From: a virus
Length of the DNA stretch: 64,000 nt
Reading direction: 5' to 3' (one strand)
IMG/VR virus record: IMGVR_UViG_3300045988_084189
Location: 1-64,000 of that record
This document shows positions 2,931-55,511 of the stretch, piece by piece. The notes under the pieces were generated by a model. It was given only the letters and a program-made list of their open reading frames with translations, had not been told where the DNA came from and did not search any database. The position numbers and the translations under genes were made by a program. How positions within the stretch are numbered: the stretch's first letter is position 1; each line of letters starts with the position of its first letter.

Positions 2931-5900
2931 ATGGTTGAAGCTGCAACGGAATTTAGAAAGAACGGATTCAATGATTCCGATGCGGCAACATTAGCAAAAA
3001 CTGCTACGATGTTCCAGAACGTCTCGGATGAGGCTATTTCCGCTGGCGATTCTGCATCGTTTATAATTTCTCAGATGATTGCATTTGGCATTGAGGCTGA
3101 AAATGCACAGTCAATCATCGATAAAGTCAATGAAACGGCAAATCGTTTTTCTGTTTCATCTGGCGATTTATCTAAAGCTCTAGGTATTGTGGCATCCACA
3201 TCGTCTGCGATGGGCAACTCTATTGACCAGACTCTTGGTGTTGTCACTGCAATTACAGAGCAAACTCGTAATGCAAGTAAATCTGCAAGAGCGGCCAATA
3301 CAATTTTTAGCCGGTTGGCTCAAGTTGTAGACGAGAATAGTGATACTGGTAAAAAGCTTACAGAGATTTATAATAACCTTGGTATTGCGCTATACGACAG
3401 CTCTGGACAGATGCGCAGTACCTATGATATTCTAGCCGATCTTGCATCAAAGTGGGATTCACTAGATAAGAATACTCAACAATATATAGCTATTACTAGT
3501 GCGGGTACAAATCAGTTAAACAATTTCCTCGCGCTGATGAATAATTTCGATCACGCAGCAGAAGCAACAGCGACATCTATCAATTCAGCTGGTTCAGCAA
3601 TGCGTGAGAATGAAGCATATCAAGAATCGCTCGAATATCAAACTAATAATCTTAAAGCAACATTCCAAGATTTAGCAAATAACGTTATTGATAAGCAACT
3701 TATTTCAGCATTATTAACCCTTGGCGACGCTTTCTTAAAAGTGGCAAATACTGGTCTTGGCACATTTATTACTAAAGTTGGATTACTAGCTGGTACGGGT
3801 TGGGGATTGAGTAGCTTATTAAAAGTTAGCCACATATTGCCAACCATTGCTACACAGTTTAGTAATTTTGGAGCAGTTATATCCCTTGTAGCAGAGGGTT
3901 CTGGTACGTTTGGTGCTGCGATTAGTGCTGCCGGTGGTGCGGCAAGTGTCGCATTGCCAATATTCTTAGCTGTAAGTGCGGCTATTGTAGGTATCATCGA
4001 ACTTGCTAATGCTCTTGAAGAAAATGCCCACAAAGCAGAAAAGCAGCTACAAGACCTAAGAACGCAAATCGATGAGATGGAAGACCCGGTTAGCGAATAT
4101 AGCAACTTAAAGAGCCGAGTTGATGAGCTTACTGAATCTGAGAAAATCCGTCTTGGTGTTCTTCAATCACAACTTGATACACTTAAAGAACAAGAGGAAG
4201 TTATAAGCCGCCAGCAGCTTGCAAAGTGGCAAAAGGGACAAGTTGAAGACCAGACCACATACGTCACAAATTATGACGATTATGGGTATGGTGTAACTGA
4301 GGCATATACTTATAATCAAGCGGCTGATTCTCTAAATAATTTTAGAGAAGCATATCTTGATTTAGAAAGAGATAAGAAGAACGGGCAAATTAGCAATTCT
4401 GAATATGTTTCAAGTCTTCAATCTCTAATTGATAAGAACCAGACAACCATTACTAACCTCAGAGATCTAAAGACGGCATATGAGGAAACTGGCGATGCCA
4501 CATATAAACTCAATGAGAATCAAGAGCGGTTCTTGTTGTGGGCTGATGCTGCTAGTGAAAAATTAGCGACTAATGCAACCAATGTAGCAAATGCGGTACA
4601 AGCTGAACAAGACGCAGCAGATGGTGTTGAAGATGCCATGTCTCAAATTGAGGTAGCCACCTATGACACTTCGACTGCTGCAGCTCAATTGACCGCATCT
4701 CTGTTTGACCAAAATGGACAATTGACTACAGCAGCACAAACAGCGTTGGCGGTTGATGGGTCAATGGTATCTTTGGAGCAGTCTGAGCTACAAGCACAGC
4801 AAGCCGCCGCACAGGCTAATTACGCTAATCTGGTTCTTCAAATTCAACAGGTTGGTGCAGCAGCTGCTATTACATCTAGCCAATTACAGTCGATGATGGC
4901 TATGGCTGGTGTTGCCACTGGTGGAGCATCTATTGGCTCTTCTAGTTCTAATCTACAAAGAACATATAAGGAATTAACTGGTAAAACAGCACAATCTAAC
5001 GAATCGGCTTATAAGTCTTGGTTGACCAACTATCTTGCAGAAAAAGGTCAAGCCAATTACGAAAAGATTATGTCTGAAACCCAGAAAAAACTTGATGAGT
5101 TAAACAAGAATGTCCCATCAGGTGTTGGTGGTGGTGGCGGTTCCTCCAAAAAATCTGCCGAAGAAAAAGCTGCAGAAGAAGCTGAAAAGCAAGCCAAGAA
5201 AGCCCAGCAAGCCCAAGAAAAGGCGGCTAAACAATCTCAGCAAGCATATGAATCAGCCGCAAAATCTGCTGAACAAGCCGCTCAAGAAGCCGCCCGTGCG
5301 GCAGAGCAAGCCGCTGAAGAAGCCAAGCAGAAAATCCTTGATTCTATTCAAGAGCTAAAAGACGCATCTGATGATTTCTGGGATAGCAAAACAGACGCTA
5401 TTGAAGAAACCAATAAAGAGCTTGACCGTCAAAAACAACTTGAGGAAAAGCTCAAAGCCCTAGAAGAAGCCAAGCAAAAGAAAATCCTGCTCTATAAGAA
5501 TGGCCAATTCCAATATGATAAGGATTATGGCACGATTGCCAAAGCTCAAGCCGATTACGAGGAAACCCGTGATAAGATTCAGCGTGAACGTGAGCTAGAG
5601 CAACTTAAAGAAATGAAAGACAACGCCAATGAGATATTCAACGAAATGAAGGATATTGTTCAGAATGGCGGCGATGTCACCCAAGAGATGATTAATAACT
5701 GGCTCAAAAATATGGCCGCATCCGGGGCTGATTATTATGATAGCAATAAGAATCTGCTGAATGAATGGCTGGATTGGGCTAAAAATGCGCTGCAGACATA
5801 TGGTCAAGGCGTGGTTGATGCGGTCAATGGCTACATTTCAACAAGTAGCTTGATGAGCAACGGAACGTATGGCAGTAATGCACAAGGCATGGTAGCTACA

Positions 5901-44225: not shown

Positions 44226-44384
44226 TTATTTTTCTTCTTTTTCTGGTTCTGTTTTATTGGTAGTCCAATAGCTTTGGTTTAATATCGGTTCTGTAGTTGT
44301 TGTTCCTCTTATAGAATAGCAATGAAAACAATCGCCATCACAATAAGCCCAGCCTTCTCCACATTTTCTCATCTGCATATCCAT
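44226..44384 (-). CDS. small Cys-rich hypothetical protein
   Basis: The ATG overlaps the upstream stop (TGATG) and follows GAAGGTG. The sequence is MDMQMRKCGEGWAYCDGDCFHC. Confidence 0.4.
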   Translation of the reverse strand: MDMQMRKCGEGWAYCDGDCFHCYSIRGTTTTEPILNQSYWTTNKTEPEKEEK

Positions 44385-45799
44385 CAAAAATACACCTTCT
44401 GATCTTGCTGAGTACATATTACCCTACTTGATTTACCTTGTTTGATTAGCTCATCCTGTAGAGTATTAGCAAATTCTACCTTGCTTGAAAATTCACTATG
44501 TACTAAGCACAGCTTATCATAATCTATATTCTGATAATATTGCATGAGCTGGTTATAATTAGCATGAGATGAAAATGTATTCAAGCAATATATCTGAGCA
44601 TTGTTCTGAATCATTTCACCATCCAGCATGATTTCTTTTGCGCCATGCTTGATTTCATATGCAAGCGTATTAGGACTAGCATAGCCAGAGAATAGCACGG
44701 CATTTCGGTTATTAGGCAGGATATATTTGAGATGCGCCAAAGCCCGTCCAGCATTGAGCATACCACTACTAGCCACTATAATGGCTCGTTCATTTGATTG
44801 CTGAATAGCTTGGCTTTCTTCCCATGATTCAATTAGCCTCAAGTTGAGCTTATCTTCATATTCTAGTTGCTCTGACCATGCTCTATAAATACGACAAGCA
44901 AGTGGCGAATCAAGATAAATAGGAATCATCTGCCCATCAATCTTGCACTCTGTGGCTCGTGTGCGCCATAGAACATCAAGAATATCCTCTACACGCTGTA
45001 GACTAAAAGCTGGCATCAAGATACGGGTATATTGACAAATAGCCGCATTTATAATCTGTTCATCATACCAGCGATCTTTCTTCATGCTATAACATCTTGT
45101 CGGGTCACTATATGTACATTCACCAACCACTACATTACATCTTGGCAATGGCTCGATTGGCGGCACAGATACGCTCTTAGCCTCTGTATTGAAATCACCT
45201 GTAAAGCCAATTCGCTTAATGCTATAACCCTGTTTGATTTCCAACACAGCTTGAGCTGAATGAATGATATGACCGGCATGATAATATGTCAGCTTTGCGC
45301 CGCCTACAATGGTCGTAGGAACCCCAAACGGCACTTCAACAAGCCATTGCATCACCTTATCAATATCAGTCTCAGTAGCCAATGGCGGCGCTTTGATACC
45401 ATGCTTATTCTGCATCTTCAAGCTATCCTGTACCATAATTTTAATACAATCGTCCATCATTATCTTGAGGATAGGGATTGAGCCTTGAGGAATATAGATA
45501 TATGCTTGCATCCCCATAGCAACAGCAATGAGTAGAGCCATACAATGGTCTGAATGGCAATGTGATATAACAACACCATGCACCGTCTTCGGCTTGATTT
45601 TCTTCATCTGATCACGATTAGCTCGATAATCAGCTACTAGATTATTGGTCTGAATCATGCCCATATCAACAGCTAATTTGATATTGTCGAATCTAATAAT
45701 CGTGCATGAACCAGTTACAGATGCGGCATTACCACCAGTGAAATGTAGATATGGCTTGGATGTGCCAGATGATTTAGCTGGCATTAGCCACCTCCTCAT
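44384..45799 (-). CDS. metallo-beta-lactamase / beta-CASP family nuclease
   Basis: HxHxDH motif (SHCHSDH) and a 471-aa length consistent with the beta-CASP RNase J / Artemis-like architecture. Confidence 0.7.
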   Translation of the reverse strand: MRRWLMPAKSSGTSKPYLHFTGGNAASVTGSCTIIRFDNIKLAVDMGMIQTNNLVADYRANRDQMKKIKPKTVHGVVISHCHSDHCMALLIAVAMGMQAYIYIPQGSIPILKIMMDDCIKIMVQDSLKMQNKHGIKAPPLATETDIDKVMQWLVEVPFGVPTTIVGGAKLTYYHAGHIIHSAQAVLEIKQGYSIKRIGFTGDFNTEAKSVSVPPIEPLPRCNVVVGECTYSDPTRCYSMKKDRWYDEQIINAAICQYTRILMPAFSLQRVEDILDVLWRTRATECKIDGQMIPIYLDSPLACRIYRAWSEQLEYEDKLNLRLIESWEESQAIQQSNERAIIVASSGMLNAGRALAHLKYILPNNRNAVLFSGYASPNTLAYEIKHGAKEIMLDGEMIQNNAQIYCLNTFSSHANYNQLMQYYQNIDYDKLCLVHSEFSSKVEFANTLQDELIKQGKSSRVICTQQDQKVYF

Positions 45800-48791: not shown

Positions 48792-48820
48792 AGTATAGCA
48801 CCATAGCGGCGATTTGTCAA
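48792..48820 (-). promoter_or_regulatory. sigma-A type promoter
   Basis: Minus strand: cTTGACAaatcgccgctatggTGcTATACTta. Confidence 0.65.
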
Positions 48821-48830
48821 GCCCTATTTT

Positions 48831-48866
48831 ATAAAAATCCCTACAATCTTTCGACCATAGGGATTT
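48831..48866 (-). terminator. rho-independent terminator after the HU gene
   Basis: Minus strand: aaatccctatggtcgaaagattgtagggattttta. The stem is 8 bp and a T-run follows. Confidence 0.65.
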
Positions 48867-48881
48867 TACCAGGAGGATTAT

Positions 48882-49157
48882 TTACTCATTGATTTCTGCC
48901 TTGAGTGTGCTTGTAGGCTTAAATGTCAGAGCATACTTGGCAGGAACTTCAATGGTTTCGCCTGTCTGTGGATTACGAGCAGTACGAGCATCACGCAGCT
49001 TGGTTGTGAACTTGCCAAAGCCATGAATCACTACATCTTCATGCTGGACTAGGCTGTTCTTTACATAGTTGATAAATTCATCAACAATTTCCTCAGTATC
49101 CTTGATTGTGTTGTCTGTTGACTGAGCTACAAACTTGATTAGTTCCTTCTTGGTCAT
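48882..49157 (-). CDS. hup: HU/IHF-family DNA-binding protein
   Basis: 91 aa with GFGKFTTKLRDARTARNPQTGETIEVPA, the HU arm signature. Confidence 0.85.
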   Translation of the reverse strand: MTKKELIKFVAQSTDNTIKDTEEIVDEFINYVKNSLVQHEDVVIHGFGKFTTKLRDARTARNPQTGETIEVPAKYALTFKPTSTLKAEINE

Positions 49158-49200
49158 AAATTCCTTTTAATTTCCTTTCAATTTCTAATAAAATTTTATT

Positions 49201-49236
49201 AAAACAAGTCGCAATGTTCATGCGCATATTGACTTG
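49201..49236 (-). terminator. hairpin plus short T-run (weak terminator or processing site)
   Basis: The stem caagtc/gacttg encloses an imperfect inner helix and is followed on the minus strand by ttttaataaaatttt. Confidence 0.3.
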
Positions 49237-49602
49237 ATATATAGGGTTATTGTTCCACTATCAACTACTTACAGGGTCCTCTTACCCAAGCCCTATATTG
49301 TTTTGCGCGGAATAGACTATCACCACGCTATGAGCCTGTGTCGAATATCGCTCTTTGTCCAGTTTTCTGTCAGCTGGCAAACACCTCATCTAATGCGCAC
49401 TTAATGAGGATTTAAGGCGTTACTTCATAGCATCAGGTGGTCAACCATCAACTATTCAGCAACTAGCATTACAACCTATAAACTAGACTATCCGCAGTGA
49501 CCAAATCTTGAGGACGGCCTTACAAAGCTAGGATTTTCAGCTTTTCCTCCAGACGTCTATCAAGTGTGCTTACAATGCTAGTAGAGGCATGATAGACGTT
49601 TT

Positions 49603-49675
49603 GACCGTGGTAGGATTCGAACCTACATCTCAACCGCTATGGACGGAGAGTATTACCAATTAGGAGACGCGGTCA
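49603..49675 (-). pseudogene. tRNA-like element (CAT at the anticodon position), degenerate
   Basis: 73 nt with canonical spacing: U8, A14, G18G19, a perfect T-arm GTAGG-TTCGAAT-CCTAC, a 6/7 acceptor stem and A73. The D-stem has 1/4 pairs and the anticodon stem 3/5. No CCA is encoded. Confidence 0.45.
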
Positions 49676-50289
49676 TATGGTAGTAGGCTTTAGGCTCAAC
49701 CTACAGGAACCGCCATTGATTTGTTTTTATCGACCCTAGGCATCGATTGGCTAGTAATCCAAACAATGGTCAACAAACCATAACTACTGGTTATGATAGC
49801 AAGCGAGGCCGCGCGTGACCTCATCTTATATAAATTCCTCAATTACCATCGACAGGTGTAATTATGTCCTCAATATACGTTTTTGAGTAATGTCTACTCT
49901 CATTGAGTACCTTATATAAAATTGCGCTACTTGCTATCATATGGAAATGGGCTTTAAGCATCAACCCATTAGAAGCAAATCAATAAACCTACACTCTAAC
50001 CTAGTCCTAAGACTGCTAGAACCTCACCCTGTTTTTGTATGCCTCGCCTCAGCTTATTGATTACAACTTTAATTAGTAGCCCTTAGTTGCCACGGGGTCA
50101 ATCTCTGCTTAATCCGTCTGGTTCTCGTTATCGACATGATTGACTGCATATGCCTTTATGCTGTTAAGCAATTTAACTTCCTCTCACCAGCTCGATTTGC
50201 ATTTGATAATGGAGTGCTTATGACACATTCTCATCTCCATAATAGTAGTCTATAAACCAGCCACTATATATCATTTCAAGTGGACTTAA

Positions 50290-50366
50290 TGGTAGCTCAG
50301 GTGGAATTCGAATCCACACTTTACGGATTTTGAATCCGCTCCCTCTGCCGATTGGGGTACTGAGCC
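50290..50366 (-). tRNA. tRNA, anticodon CAA (nominally Leu) with a short variable loop
   Basis: GGCTCAG-TA-CCCC-AATCGGCAG-AGGG-A-GCGGA-TTCAAAA-TCCGT-AAAGT-GTGGA-TTCGAAT-TCCAC-CTGAGCT-A-CCA. It folds into a cloverleaf and encodes CCA. Confidence 0.7.
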
Positions 50367-51200
50367 ATATTCAATCTCAAGCCGACTTCCTGCCTCATAG
50401 CTATTTCTAGCATCGGCTCGTGAATGATGTTTACATAATATCCTTATATCACCTTCGTCGTTACGTTTTTGCATGGATGCTAACGTGGCACGATTGGGCG
50501 CGACCCCAATTCTCTAGTCTGTATCTGCCGCTTCTCAAACTCTGCGCAGACCCCAGTGCGGGCGTGATATAGATTTGACGGTTATCTTCAAATCCGGTCG
50601 GATATTATATTATTTGTCAATCCCAATCCCTTTTATTATGCCGAACAGATTGACTAGTGCGCCCTACTTGGCATTAGGCAATTACGCCATTTATGCTTAT
50701 CTCATTTGTCTTACGCACGTTCCCTTGCTCGCTTTTTTATCAAAGACCGACATACCACGTAGGATATGCGGTTAGCTTGGTTTGCCTATCGCACGAGCAA
50801 TGATAGGTTTTTTACGACAATATGGTAGCTATGACCCGGTTTCATGGTCAATTACGAAGAGCAGTTAAAAGTTGTTACCTTTTACTTAAAATCTCTCTTC
50901 AACCTCTTACGAGGGACTAAGCCGTATCATTCGGATTTCCCGACTCATTTCGACTTGCGGATTTGTTACCTACCGCTGCACTACCTGCTAACCTTTCTAT
51001 GTTAGCCCCGACCCGTCTGTTCAACTATCGTTAGCTATTGCCGAAGTGTTATTGCACTCTACTCCATATGGAAGACCTATTTGATCGTTCGAGTGCAACA
51101 TATGATGGCTGTTCATCAAACTCCACTTAGCTGTTTCGTAATGCCCATCTGAACTATGTCAGGACTCAGCGATTTCAGCACCATCATCTTTACATTCTCA

Positions 51201-51229
51201 ATTATACCACACTTGATTTTATTTGTCAA
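51201..51229 (-). promoter_or_regulatory. sigma-A type promoter driving the ORF-free region
   Basis: Minus strand: cTTGACAaataaaatcaagtgTGgTATAATtg. Confidence 0.7.
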
Positions 51230-51304
51230 GCATTATTTTTCATACACTAATAATCAATAAATTTTCTTAAACATCTAACCATACAACTTACCCTACCTAA
51301 TCAA

Positions 51305-51544
51305 CTAATCTGAAATTTCTTCATTATTAGTCAATGATTTCTTTGCCATACGAGCTGATTTGAGCCGTTCTGCCGTAACTTGCTTCTGCTCTTCGGTCAT
51401 TGAGCGGGTACGCCCTGATTTGCCAAATCTCAAGTCATAAAGCGGACAAGACTTAATTGGACAATGTTTCACTTCGTTTGCTGAATCACCTGAGCATTGT
51501 AAACAATATTGTCGTATTCGTTTCAGCGGAGATGCTGAATCCAT
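51305..51544 (-). CDS. small Cys4 zinc-binding basic protein
   Basis: 79 aa with CLQCSGD...HCPIKSCPLY and a basic C-terminal tail. Confidence 0.5.
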   Translation of the reverse strand: MDSASPLKRIRQYCLQCSGDSANEVKHCPIKSCPLYDLRFGKSGRTRSMTEEQKQVTAERLKSARMAKKSLTNNEEISD

Positions 51545-51573
51545 ATTAGGTACTCCTTTTATTTTATTTTATC

Positions 51574-51649
51574 TGGTCGAGGGTAAGTGATTTGAACACT
51601 TGTAGCACGATTATAAGTCGTGTGGACTAGACCGCTGTCCGAACCCTCG
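51574..51649 (-). tRNA. tRNA-Ile (anticodon UAU)
   Basis: CGAGGGT-TC-GGAC-AGCGGTCTA-GTCC-A-CACGA-CTTATAA-TCGTG-CTAC-AAGTG-TTCAAAT-CACTT-ACCCTCG-A-CCA. All stems are fully paired. Confidence 0.85.
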
Positions 51650-51748
51650 ATAATTTGAGCCTTTTATCGTCATGCTCAGGACTATATTCTAGGAGGTTCA
51701 CAATGAAGAACTGTAATTGAGATTACCCAATTTCTCAACCACATCTGT

Positions 51749-54198: not shown

Positions 54199-54219
54199 TT
54201 TAATTTACCTCCTCAATAT

Positions 54220-54378
54220 TCATTTTTCATTTTGTGGCTCGTATATATGTATATCACATTTGATTCTATTTGTCAAGTATGAATTTCAATTTTCATTTTG
54301 GGATTATAAATATCAATTCCGATTTTAGAATTTCATTTTCCACATATATTTACAATCTCGAAAGTCATTTTTCATTTT
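54220..54378. repeat. three copies of TCA(T/A)TTTTCATTTT
   Basis: Copies lie at 54220, 54285 (one mismatch) and 54365. The first and third extend to ~30 nt: ...CTCGT(A/GC)ATATAT. Confidence 0.5.
54248..54276 (-). promoter_or_regulatory. sigma-A type promoter (weaker -10)
   Basis: Minus strand: cTTGACAaatagaatcaaatgTGaTATACAta. Confidence 0.5.
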
Positions 54379-54379
54379 C

Positions 54380-54740
54380 CAGCTCGTGCATATATAGATA
54401 TCTATATACGTACACATATACAATAACAATAATCATTATCATTTACACATACATATATCAATCAATCGATATATTAGCACATCCATCTACATATACATTT
54501 ACATATTCATATGCAGATACATCTACATCATCATGCACATAAATGATGCAGATAGCAATACGCATGATATAGATAGATATATTTATCGATAATGCGCAGC
54601 TTTATGTCTATGAATAAAAGCATTACTTTCATGCACATATCACGATTTATATTAGCATCAAAGTCAACATCATTCACATTTTTCATATGAATATTCACCA
54701 ACAGCATCACATTTTTACATGGGAGATTTATGTACATTCA
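54380..54740. repeat. G-depleted CA/TA-rich low-complexity tract
   Basis: The + strand is almost devoid of G for >150 nt (catatatacaataacaataatcattatcatttacacatac...). It also contains the ATCGAT-centred palindromes aatcgatat and TTATCGATAA. Confidence 0.6.
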
Positions 54741-55306
54741 CACATTTTTCCATTGTAAAATAATGTGCGGTTGTCGGCTGGCAACTTGTCTGTATGACAT
54801 AAGACGCACAAGTTATGAGCGCAGATTTCACCATAGCCATGTCGCGCCGTTGGAACCGATTTGAGCCGAGTTTATACTCATCCTAGGTAATATATGCCCA
54901 TAGTCGATTCGAGCCGCCACGCCTGTCCTGAGCCACGCATCGTCGCCGCGATTGTATATAGGCATATATTACCGGGGGAAAATTCGTTTGACCTAATCCG
55001 CACACGCGCACATGAGAAAATCCGGCTCGATTTTTCCGCGCCGATCCATTATATGTACTGTATATTGCTGGGAAAAATGTAAAAAATTGTAAGGTGCGCT
55101 CGTACTTATGCCCGCTCGACCCCTCGATTTTTCACTTCATTTGAGTAAAGCATGGTGGGAAAATATGGTAGTTAAAGTCGTCTAACAAGATTTGTGAAAA
55201 AATGGAAATAGCCTGAAAAGTTGGAAGTTGTGCAGATTGTACAAACATAGTTAAACGCCTTTAACTCATGTTCGACCTTCCCCTCCTCATATGTTATCCA
55301 TAGGTC
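54740..55306 (-). ncRNA. candidate non-coding transcript or structured leader
   Basis: The consensus promoter at 55313..55341 points into an ORF-free GC-rich segment. Only a 9-codon mini-ORF follows the RBS-like GAGGAGGGG. Confidence 0.3.
54886..54973. repeat. perfect 13-bp inverted repeat
   Basis: GGTAATATATGCC (54886-54898) and GGCATATATTACC (54961-54973), separated by 62 nt of GC-rich sequence. Confidence 0.8.
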
Positions 55307-55312
55307 ACTTTG

Positions 55313-55341
55313 ATTATAGCAGATTGATCGCAGCTTGTCAA
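55313..55341 (-). promoter_or_regulatory. sigma-A type promoter
   Basis: Minus strand: gTTGACAagctgcgatcaatcTGcTATAATca. Confidence 0.7.
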
Positions 55342-55351
55342 CAAAAAAATT

Positions 55352-55407
55352 GCATAAAAATAAGCCGCCAATTTTGGGCATATTGTACAATGCCCTTCTG
55401 GCGGCTT
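55352..55407 (-). terminator. long hairpin terminator
   Basis: Outer stem aagccgcca/tggcggctt with inner stem gggcat/atgccc. A T-run follows on the minus strand. Confidence 0.55.
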
Positions 55408-55454
55408 TGGCGGCTTTATACGGCGCGAACTATGCCGGGGATATATAAACATAG

Positions 55455-55493
55455 GGAAGAAAAGAAAAGCCCATAGCGGTCAAGCTATAGGCT
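55455..55493 (-). terminator. rho-independent terminator
   Basis: Minus strand: agcctatagc-ttgacc-gctatgggct followed by tttcttttctt. Confidence 0.55.
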
Positions 55494-55511
55494 TTAGAAT
55501 TGCTATTTGAT

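Follow-up and report, generated by a model that had tools for sequence, protein, structure and literature searches.

A mosaic array of putative structured RNA modules and tRNAs between a consensus promoter and hup in an uncultivated gut phage, with a longer form of the RAGATH-33 RNA

Two large RNAs without a known function, GOLLD and ROOL, are already on record from phage tRNA islands, and here we describe a different organization of such an island, in an uncultivated gut phage (IMG/VR record IMGVR_UViG_3300045988_084189). The window, by which we mean the whole stretch analysed, comprises positions 1 to 64,000 of that record (64,000 nt); coordinates are window positions, and all features of the array lie on the minus strand. 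The phage encodes PolIII alpha, ribonucleotide reductase (RNR), a RecD-like helicase, HU and a tyrosine recombinase, and the nearest GenBank phage proteins to the window proteins are only 35–39% identical. The locus in question runs from a sigma-70 promoter through a non-coding array of 2.04 kb to hup and a terminator, and the array includes R33x, an extended form of the catalogued RNA motif RAGATH-33. Read in the direction of transcription, its features, preceded by an upstream tRNA gene, are as follows.

51574..51649, minus strand: tRNA-Ile(UAU), 76 nt, upstream of the promoter, matched at the Rfam gathering score.
51201..51229, minus strand: promoter TTGACA-N17-(TG)TATAAT, a 12/12 match and one of 11 near-identical sites on this strand.
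51102..51187, minus strand: M1, a leader domain of ~86 nt closed by AUGAUGG/CCAUCAU, in 8–9 relatives, with weak structural support.
51050..51100, minus strand: M2a, a branched hairpin whose 10-bp closing stem has UUGCACUC/GAGUGCAA (-17.7 kcal/mol, z = -3.6).
50815..51043, minus strand: R33x, 229 nt, helices P0–P8 by comparative structure, 67 of 69 pairs being canonical in the window copy.
50923..51035, minus strand: the part of R33x covered by RF03102 (139.9 bits).
50726..50814, minus strand: spacer block 'sp', common to only 3–4 relatives.
50614..50725, minus strand: B1, two hairpin domains, in 17 relatives, with one-sided changes only.
50436..50607, minus strand: B2, a domain of ~172 nt closed by AUAAUAUCC/GGAUAUUAU, with five inner helices and a covariation-supported terminal stem.
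50367..50435, minus strand: B3, a hairpin leader always directly before the tRNA-Leu slot (19 sequences, four compensatory pairs).
50290..50366, minus strand: tRNA with anticodon CAA, 77 nt, CCA encoded (Rfam 56.6 bits against a cut-off of 29; called tRNA-Leu(CAA) by ARAGORN).
49942..50289, minus strand: C1, ending in a hairpin followed by UUCCA-UAU, common to 3–4 relatives.
49791..49941, minus strand: C2, a domain of ~150 nt with an 11-bp closing stem, AUGAUAGCAAG/CUUGCUAUCAU, that covariation likewise supports (z = -5.3).
49675..49790, minus strand: C3, whose end, a C1-type hairpin and then ACCA-UAU, adjoins the tRNA-like element.
49602..49674, minus strand: that element, a decayed tRNA-Met(CAU) homologue (Rfam 25.2 bits, below 29; no ARAGORN call).
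49243..49601, minus strand: D0, D1 and D2, hairpin domains, D1 and D2b being in 17–18 relatives.
49158..49242, minus strand: hup leader with ribosome-binding site, in all 25 relatives, those without the array included.
48882..49157, minus strand: hup, encoding an HU-type DNA-binding protein (PF00216, 1.2e-30; codon-periodic substitutions), the last gene of the unit.
48834..48867, minus strand: intrinsic terminator, a 15-bp stem and short U-run.

The promoter is a TTGACA-N17-TATAAT element with an upstream TG (extended -10), a perfect site as a preliminary description of this DNA had claimed, and it is kept in 19–22 of 27 relatives. The 11 near-identical promoters (TTGACAA-N14-TGnTATA(A/C)T) lie between 28542 and 55341, all on the minus strand, and are spread over the replication/early region. 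The layout given in that description was accurate as well: tRNA(CAA) begins ~828 nt after the start site, the tRNA-like element follows after 615 nt, and hup after another ~444 nt. No terminator was found inside the array. The intrinsic terminator after hup is strong, with a folding energy of -18.8 kcal/mol (z = -4.1).

Positions 49158–51304 form the largest gap without an open reading frame (ORF) in this gene-dense window (2147 nt; the runner-up has 969 nt), and the longest ORF inside it measures 66 aa. Recoding each single stop codon opened no gene-sized frame in the gap. In alignments of the array modules with relatives the variable columns are even over the three phases (p = 0.6–0.98), and the test for protein-like conservation is thus negative; third-position excess is strong in hup (p = 2e-11) and in the upstream 79-aa gene (p = 2e-6). 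The 2-kb stretch is non-coding, having neither an ORF nor codon-periodic substitution, and the two ways in which the preliminary description thought that a protein might yet emerge, three-periodic conservation and an ORF under another code, both came out negative. The GC enrichment that it reported proved marginal: the region has 41.8% GC, the window as a whole 39.5%, and a GC content at least as high occurs in 18% of 2-kb windows.

To follow the array among related phages, loci were retrieved via HU (L011–L036) and via the upstream 79-aa gene, all of them close relatives whose HU is 84–98% identical, and the window array was split at recurrent BLAST breakpoints into 18 blocks. Presence and absence of these blocks define 23 distinct architectures in 28 related loci, and between the last promoter and the start codon of hup lie anything from 484 to 2173 nt. 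In three relatives (L020, L021, L031) the array is wholly absent, the hup leader there directly following the 79-aa gene region. The RAGATH-33 block (51101–50726) is found among the relatives only in a 98%-identical contig and two metagenome fragments, while the B blocks (50725–50367) occur in 17–22 of 27 and D1 in 18. Nine large phages (L002–L010) have only the RAGATH-33 block in common with the window, in some cases also tRNA(CAA), and single-sequence nhmmer searches of blocks A–D against them gave essentially no matches; R33x occurs without the remaining blocks in these unrelated phages and at many metagenome loci. A blastn search of the whole 2 kb against GenBank phages returned tRNA-Leu matches only. 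Blocks that are inherited independently are not helices of one obligatory fold. (A global minimum free energy (MFE) fold of the 2-kb transcript, with domain borders at odds with the comparative breakpoints, proved uninformative.) Judged by the comparisons of loci, the array is best described as a set of putative separately folding cassettes that are gained, lost and exchanged between phages as tRNA genes are.

The best defined of the cassettes is R33x. At gathering scores, Rfam has three matches over the window, RAGATH-33, tRNA(CAA) and tRNA-Ile(UAU). The RAGATH-33 model (RF03102), which belongs to the motif set of Weinberg and colleagues (Weinberg et al., 2017; PMC5737381), matches 51035–50923 on the minus strand at 139.9 bits against a gathering score of 120.4, over model positions 1–113 of 113 (E = 8e-31). 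Its three hairpins (P1, P2 and the P5 tip) and its conserved linker, CAGCGGuAGGUAAcAAAuCCG, are present in the model alignment of the window copy; among 57 sequences, compensation is seen in P2 and the P5 tip. No twister or hammerhead ribozyme matched at gathering score in the window. Proximity to genes associated with those ribozymes is the discovery heuristic to which RAGATH-33 owes its name, not a feature of its structure, and was treated as non-defining.

An alignment of the Rfam match and its flanks from ten loci showed that conservation reaches ~110 nt past the 3' end of the model. RNAalifold paired GGUAGU, situated right after hairpin two of the model, with a GCUACC close to the 3' end, and in L007 this pairing is doubly compensated (GGCAUU/GAUGCC). 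Further copies were collected with degenerate-pattern scans of metagenomes and genomes, filtered by profile hidden Markov model; about one-third of the pattern matches were due to chance and were removed with nhmmer. The 63 full-length copies gathered, a divergent subgroup among them, gave an alignment of 57 distinct sequences, in which covariation was compared with slid-partner controls and 500 shuffles. Nine helices were resolved: P0, which closes the RNA from the immediate flanks of the model; P1 and P2; P3, a long-range helix; and P4–P8, which extend from a second junction. In the window P0 is formed by 51043–51036 with 50822–50815 and P3 by 50985–50980 with 50829–50824. Standard pairs fill 93.4% of cells, compared with 30–46% in the slid controls; 39 of the 69 pairs have changed on both sides (10–14 in the controls); and the covariation score of 0.338 (slid 0.06–0.11) was reached by none of the 500 shuffles. 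Compensation is seen at every one of the nine pairs of P0 and at three of the six in P3.

R33x is 230–256 nt long (median 231) and ranges from 64% to 98% identity over many phage lineages; 85 columns are invariant, 47 of them unpaired. Several invariant pairs are G-U, which fixes the transcribed strand and disfavours a DNA-level element. When IMG/VR was scanned with a pattern for the 3' half only (P8 plus tail), 29 of the 33 stretches recovered carried the complete RNA, Rfam half included, and the other four had no RAGATH-33 signal. R33x contains the whole Rfam model and adds to it P0 as closing stem, P3 (GGUAGU/GCUACC) as long-range stem and, beyond the 3' end of the model, another four helices. 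The comparative evidence indicates that the 113-nt RAGATH-33 of Rfam is the 5' half of a larger RNA of 230–256 nt, whose extent and structure are newly defined here; a literature search found no paper naming RAGATH-33, and the authors of the 2017 motif set may have noted an extension.

A tmRNA- or tRNA-like 3' end (a T-arm-like hairpin, then AGCU-ACCA) was also considered for R33x and rejected, because GCUACC pairs internally with GGUAGU, double compensation included, and because the flanks form P0. A naive all-against-all covariation scan for pseudoknots in R33x was overwhelmed by noise from G-U pairs, and no tertiary pair that it suggested was credible. The RNA has two invariant GUAAC loops, at 50878–50872 (P7) and 50972–50961 (P4). 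The former, GUAACRA, has 7 nt and, like an anticodon loop, places U second and a purine sixth; the latter has 12 nt, UAGGUAACAAAU. It is conceivable, as pure speculation, that these loops pair with a GUU anticodon (AAC being an Asn codon) or make loop–loop contacts.

The genomic setting of R33x is strikingly uniform. Across 60 distinct loci, 370 tRNAs lie on the same strand as the RNA and none on the opposite strand. In 23 loci a tRNA ends 4–7 nt upstream of P0, and members of the divergent subgroup sit between two tRNAs, 4–6 nt from the upstream and 7–10 nt from the downstream one. Twenty loci have a TTGACA-N17-TATACT promoter of their own ~35 nt upstream of R33x and a T-run after P0. With either its own promoter or tight tRNA flanking, R33x is therefore a discrete RNA gene, transcribed alone or so placed that, from what is known of tRNA processing, RNase P and RNase Z would release it almost at P0.

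Other RNAs are found in these arrays as well. The tRNA array of L007 holds, besides R33x, a ROOL RNA 1.7 kb further downstream (4468–5062, 302 bits), and a RAGATH-18 RNA occurs at 1595–1667 of L008, another R33x-bearing tRNA-array locus. In arrays of the large phages (L004 3507–3584; L010 635–705, 825–902 and 2858–2930), ARAGORN calls tRNA-like genes with four-base anticodons (gcag, tttt, ggta) and one CTA (amber-reading) tRNA.

The remaining modules matched no Rfam family, whether in the window or in any of twelve relatives. For B2, 98.5% of cells are paired in 15 sequences (32–43% when partners are slid) and 10 of 44 pairs are compensatory, mostly owing to two sequences (0–2 when slid); its unpaired runs are long and invariant. 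A B2 pattern scan of IMG/VR yielded the same group of phages only. Both hairpins quoted in the preliminary description, attggg/cccaat and atataggg/ccctatat, exist, and the first proved to be a B2 helix with covariation. The 5' sub-domain of B2 recurs with compensatory changes in a separate phage group (L150, L158, L159, L194) that also carries R33x, tRNA-Ile(UAU), tRNA-Leu(CAA) and a multi-kb ORF-poor array. A copy of C2 in L135, 64% identical, keeps 38 pairs, nine of them compensatory. D1 shows covariation at the level of its hairpins (16 sequences, nine compensatory pairs, five pairs with breaks). M2a was found only alongside the RAGATH-33 block (in L011, L101 and L140), and M1 showed no covariation (z = -0.4).

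A hairpin-plus-tail motif of ~35 nt (GGGUUGAnnCUUAAAGCCC..CCAUAU) occurs twice in the array, at 49977–49942 and 49701–49675, and in relatives immediately precedes the slot of tRNA(CAU); it may serve as a signal for processing or recombination. The '..CCA-UAU' junctions had been considered as free CCA ends, a reading that was set aside, the junctions being these motifs upstream of the tRNA slot.

The tRNAs themselves are also subject to replacement. The window tRNA(CAA) has a short, 5-nt variable loop. In several relatives the slot behind B3 is taken by an unrelated long-arm tRNA-Leu(CAA) of 85 nt (for example L012 5382–5466); the amino-acid identity of the short-loop tRNA is uncertain. The tRNA-like element has C for U at loop position 33 and a mismatch in the anticodon stem, and ARAGORN calls tRNA-Met(CAU) for its homologues in L019, L034 and L026. 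The position of tRNA-Ile(UAU) is occupied in most relatives by an unrelated 93-nt gene (for example L013 2987–3079). In close phages (L015/L022 5384–5457, L025 5411–5484, L014 5439–5512) there is a 74-nt tRNA-like scaffold that differs almost only in its anticodon (TAC, TAT, TGT), which looks like anticodon switching on a fixed body.

Turning to hup and its neighbourhood, the statement that the gene has no recognisable promoter of its own was roughly right, with the qualification that a weak site upstream of it (49220–49193) matches at 9 of 12 positions. The hup leader has a weak hairpin and U-run (-7.1 kcal/mol, z = -0.6), unconvincing as a terminator. On the same strand, 3.4 kb downstream of the array, lies a 471-aa protein with Beta-Casp and RMMBL domains (44384–45799, minus strand), a nuclease of the RNase J/CPSF type and a candidate phage enzyme for processing of the array transcript. 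The second-longest ORF-free stretch of the window (54543–55511) is in part very AT-rich (27–30% GC around 54200–54800) and contains a consensus promoter at 55341; it yielded short repeats only and no Rfam match.

We favour the view, at a probability of roughly three in four, that the locus is a phage early transcription unit in which one promoter serves a beads-on-a-string series of non-coding RNA modules and tRNAs, then hup, then the terminator. The array holds an intact R33x, tRNA(CAA), the decayed tRNA(CAU) and at least three or four further conserved structured domains (B2, C2, D1, B3). The host polymerase would make a single precursor of ~2.4 kb from the consensus promoter; RNase P, RNase Z and possibly the phage beta-CASP nuclease would cut it into discrete stable RNAs, and its 3' part would serve as the hup mRNA. 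What the preliminary description saw in outline, a promoter-driven, non-coding region rich in conserved RNA structure in a tRNA context like that of GOLLD and ROOL, is upheld.

Several points weigh against this view. Co-transcription of the array, its cleavage sites and the stability of its RNAs are steps that we only infer. The weak promoter-like site before hup, together with the weak hairpin and U-run, makes some independent expression of hup possible. In the window R33x is 875 nt from the nearest tRNA upstream and 447 nt from the nearest downstream; lacking a direct tRNA flank, it is not an obvious substrate for release by RNase P and RNase Z, and another RNase would be needed. For the modules other than R33x the evidence comes from few close sequences (82–95% identity), with structures taken from the same alignments, as is also true of B2 and its compensatory pairs. 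M1, C1 and D2 lack convincing structural support, and their folding energies are unremarkable.

These last modules, which fold no better than random, are what one would expect if the array were the functionless debris of a decaying tRNA island, carried along only through shared transcription with hup and useful tRNAs; the decayed tRNA(CAU), the rampant indels and reshuffling, and the three relatives without an array fit as well. We consider this unlikely. Debris would hardly keep R33x at 64–98% identity, with compensation at 39 pairs and no change at 47 unpaired positions, nor B2 with its invariant unpaired runs and compensatory pairs, nor the 38 pairs of C2 at 64% identity, and R33x, B2 and C2 are not tRNA-like.

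Lying as it does downstream of the promoter and ahead of hup, and not being cut off from the gene by any convincing terminator, the array might also be an extended 5' leader that regulates hup by attenuation or through control of translation or stability. Yet only the leader of ~80 nt is constant across relatives, three of which do without the array, the blocks are found elsewhere without hup, and the array includes a bona fide tRNA gene, all of which makes such a leader very improbable.

The preliminary description had itself proposed a single giant structured RNA of ~2 kb with embedded tRNAs, either GOLLD- or ROOL-like or of a new class. ROOL and GOLLD are found in phages and prophages, in or beside tRNA islands with which they are probably co-transcribed, and GOLLD can hold a tRNA in a variable linker. 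The single promoter, the lack of an internal terminator, the abundant local structure and the phage tRNA-island context all agree with that proposal. However, a permissive Rfam scan (E <= 10, 48800–51700) found no GOLLD, ROOL (RF03087) or other large RNA and added only a sub-threshold tRNA, and the 302-bit match in L007 indicates that the scan is able to detect ROOL. The proposal is already largely refuted by the mosaic pattern, with its 23 architectures in 28 relatives, independently inherited blocks and array lengths from 0 to 2.2 kb; moreover, each well-supported block is self-closed by its own terminal stem, and R33x is elsewhere stand-alone with its own promoter or flanked by tRNAs. We regard one giant RNA as a most improbable account of the locus. 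Least credible are elements acting as DNA, whether an origin or packaging region or miniature mobile cassettes bounded by terminal inverted repeats. Closing stems are terminal inverted repeats and blocks do behave as insertions and deletions, but the helices, closing and internal alike, tolerate and even fix G-U pairs, which in DNA or on the opposite strand would be C-A mismatches; the tRNAs are co-oriented without exception (370 to 0); and some copies have a dedicated promoter.

Compared with the known large RNAs, R33x is like ROOL and GOLLD in its multi-junction fold, its many conserved unpaired nucleotides and its location on the same strand in phage tRNA islands. It differs in size (230–256 nt against 580–800+ nt; the ROOL model has ~580 nt and six multistem junctions) and has no sequence or structure match to them, and the 2-kb region as a whole, unlike those of large ornate RNAs, has no one conserved fold of >500 nt that is inherited as a unit. 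ROOL and GOLLD have been shown to form homo-oligomeric RNA-only cages of unknown function.

The tRNA cluster of phage T4 provides another parallel. It yields stable non-tRNA RNAs of ~120–140 nt and unknown function (species 1 and 2, or band C and D), which lie between tRNA genes, are co-transcribed with them and are freed by the tRNA-processing machinery. The processing proposed here would follow the same pattern; the array, unlike the T4 cluster, consists mostly of non-tRNA modules with one intact tRNA. Mycobacterial and mycobacteriophage tRNA array units with non-coding RNAs (Morgado et al.; PMC5966550; PMC7549688) are similar in combining dense same-strand tRNAs in mobile elements with a large non-coding RNA; that RNA is GOLLD, and both the host clade (gut phages here, with Firmicutes-type metagenome-assembled genomes among the loci) and the RNA families differ.

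A bolder and rather doubtful proposal is that the full R33x is a new ribozyme, or an RNA-only or tRNA-binding assembly like ROOL and GOLLD, excised from phage tRNA precursors, and that the window array is a toolbox with at least three further undescribed RNA classes (B2, C2, D1) that gut phages would swap like tRNA genes. The features that suggest it are the nine helices, the two multi-helix junctions, the 47 invariant unpaired positions and the GUAAC loops, and R33x, modelled until now only in its 5' half, may for that reason have gone without functional study.

The array represents a tRNA-island organization different from those with GOLLD or ROOL: structured RNAs of medium size, outnumbering the tRNAs, are strung together behind a promoter in hyper-mosaic fashion. 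R33x, as defined here, corrects and roughly doubles a catalogued Rfam motif, and assays on the 113-nt RAGATH-33 alone would miss the closing stems and five of the nine helices. Its placement 4–10 nt from flanking tRNAs offers a testable route to the mature ends of the RNA, and B2, C2 and D1 are candidate new RNA families in human-gut phages.

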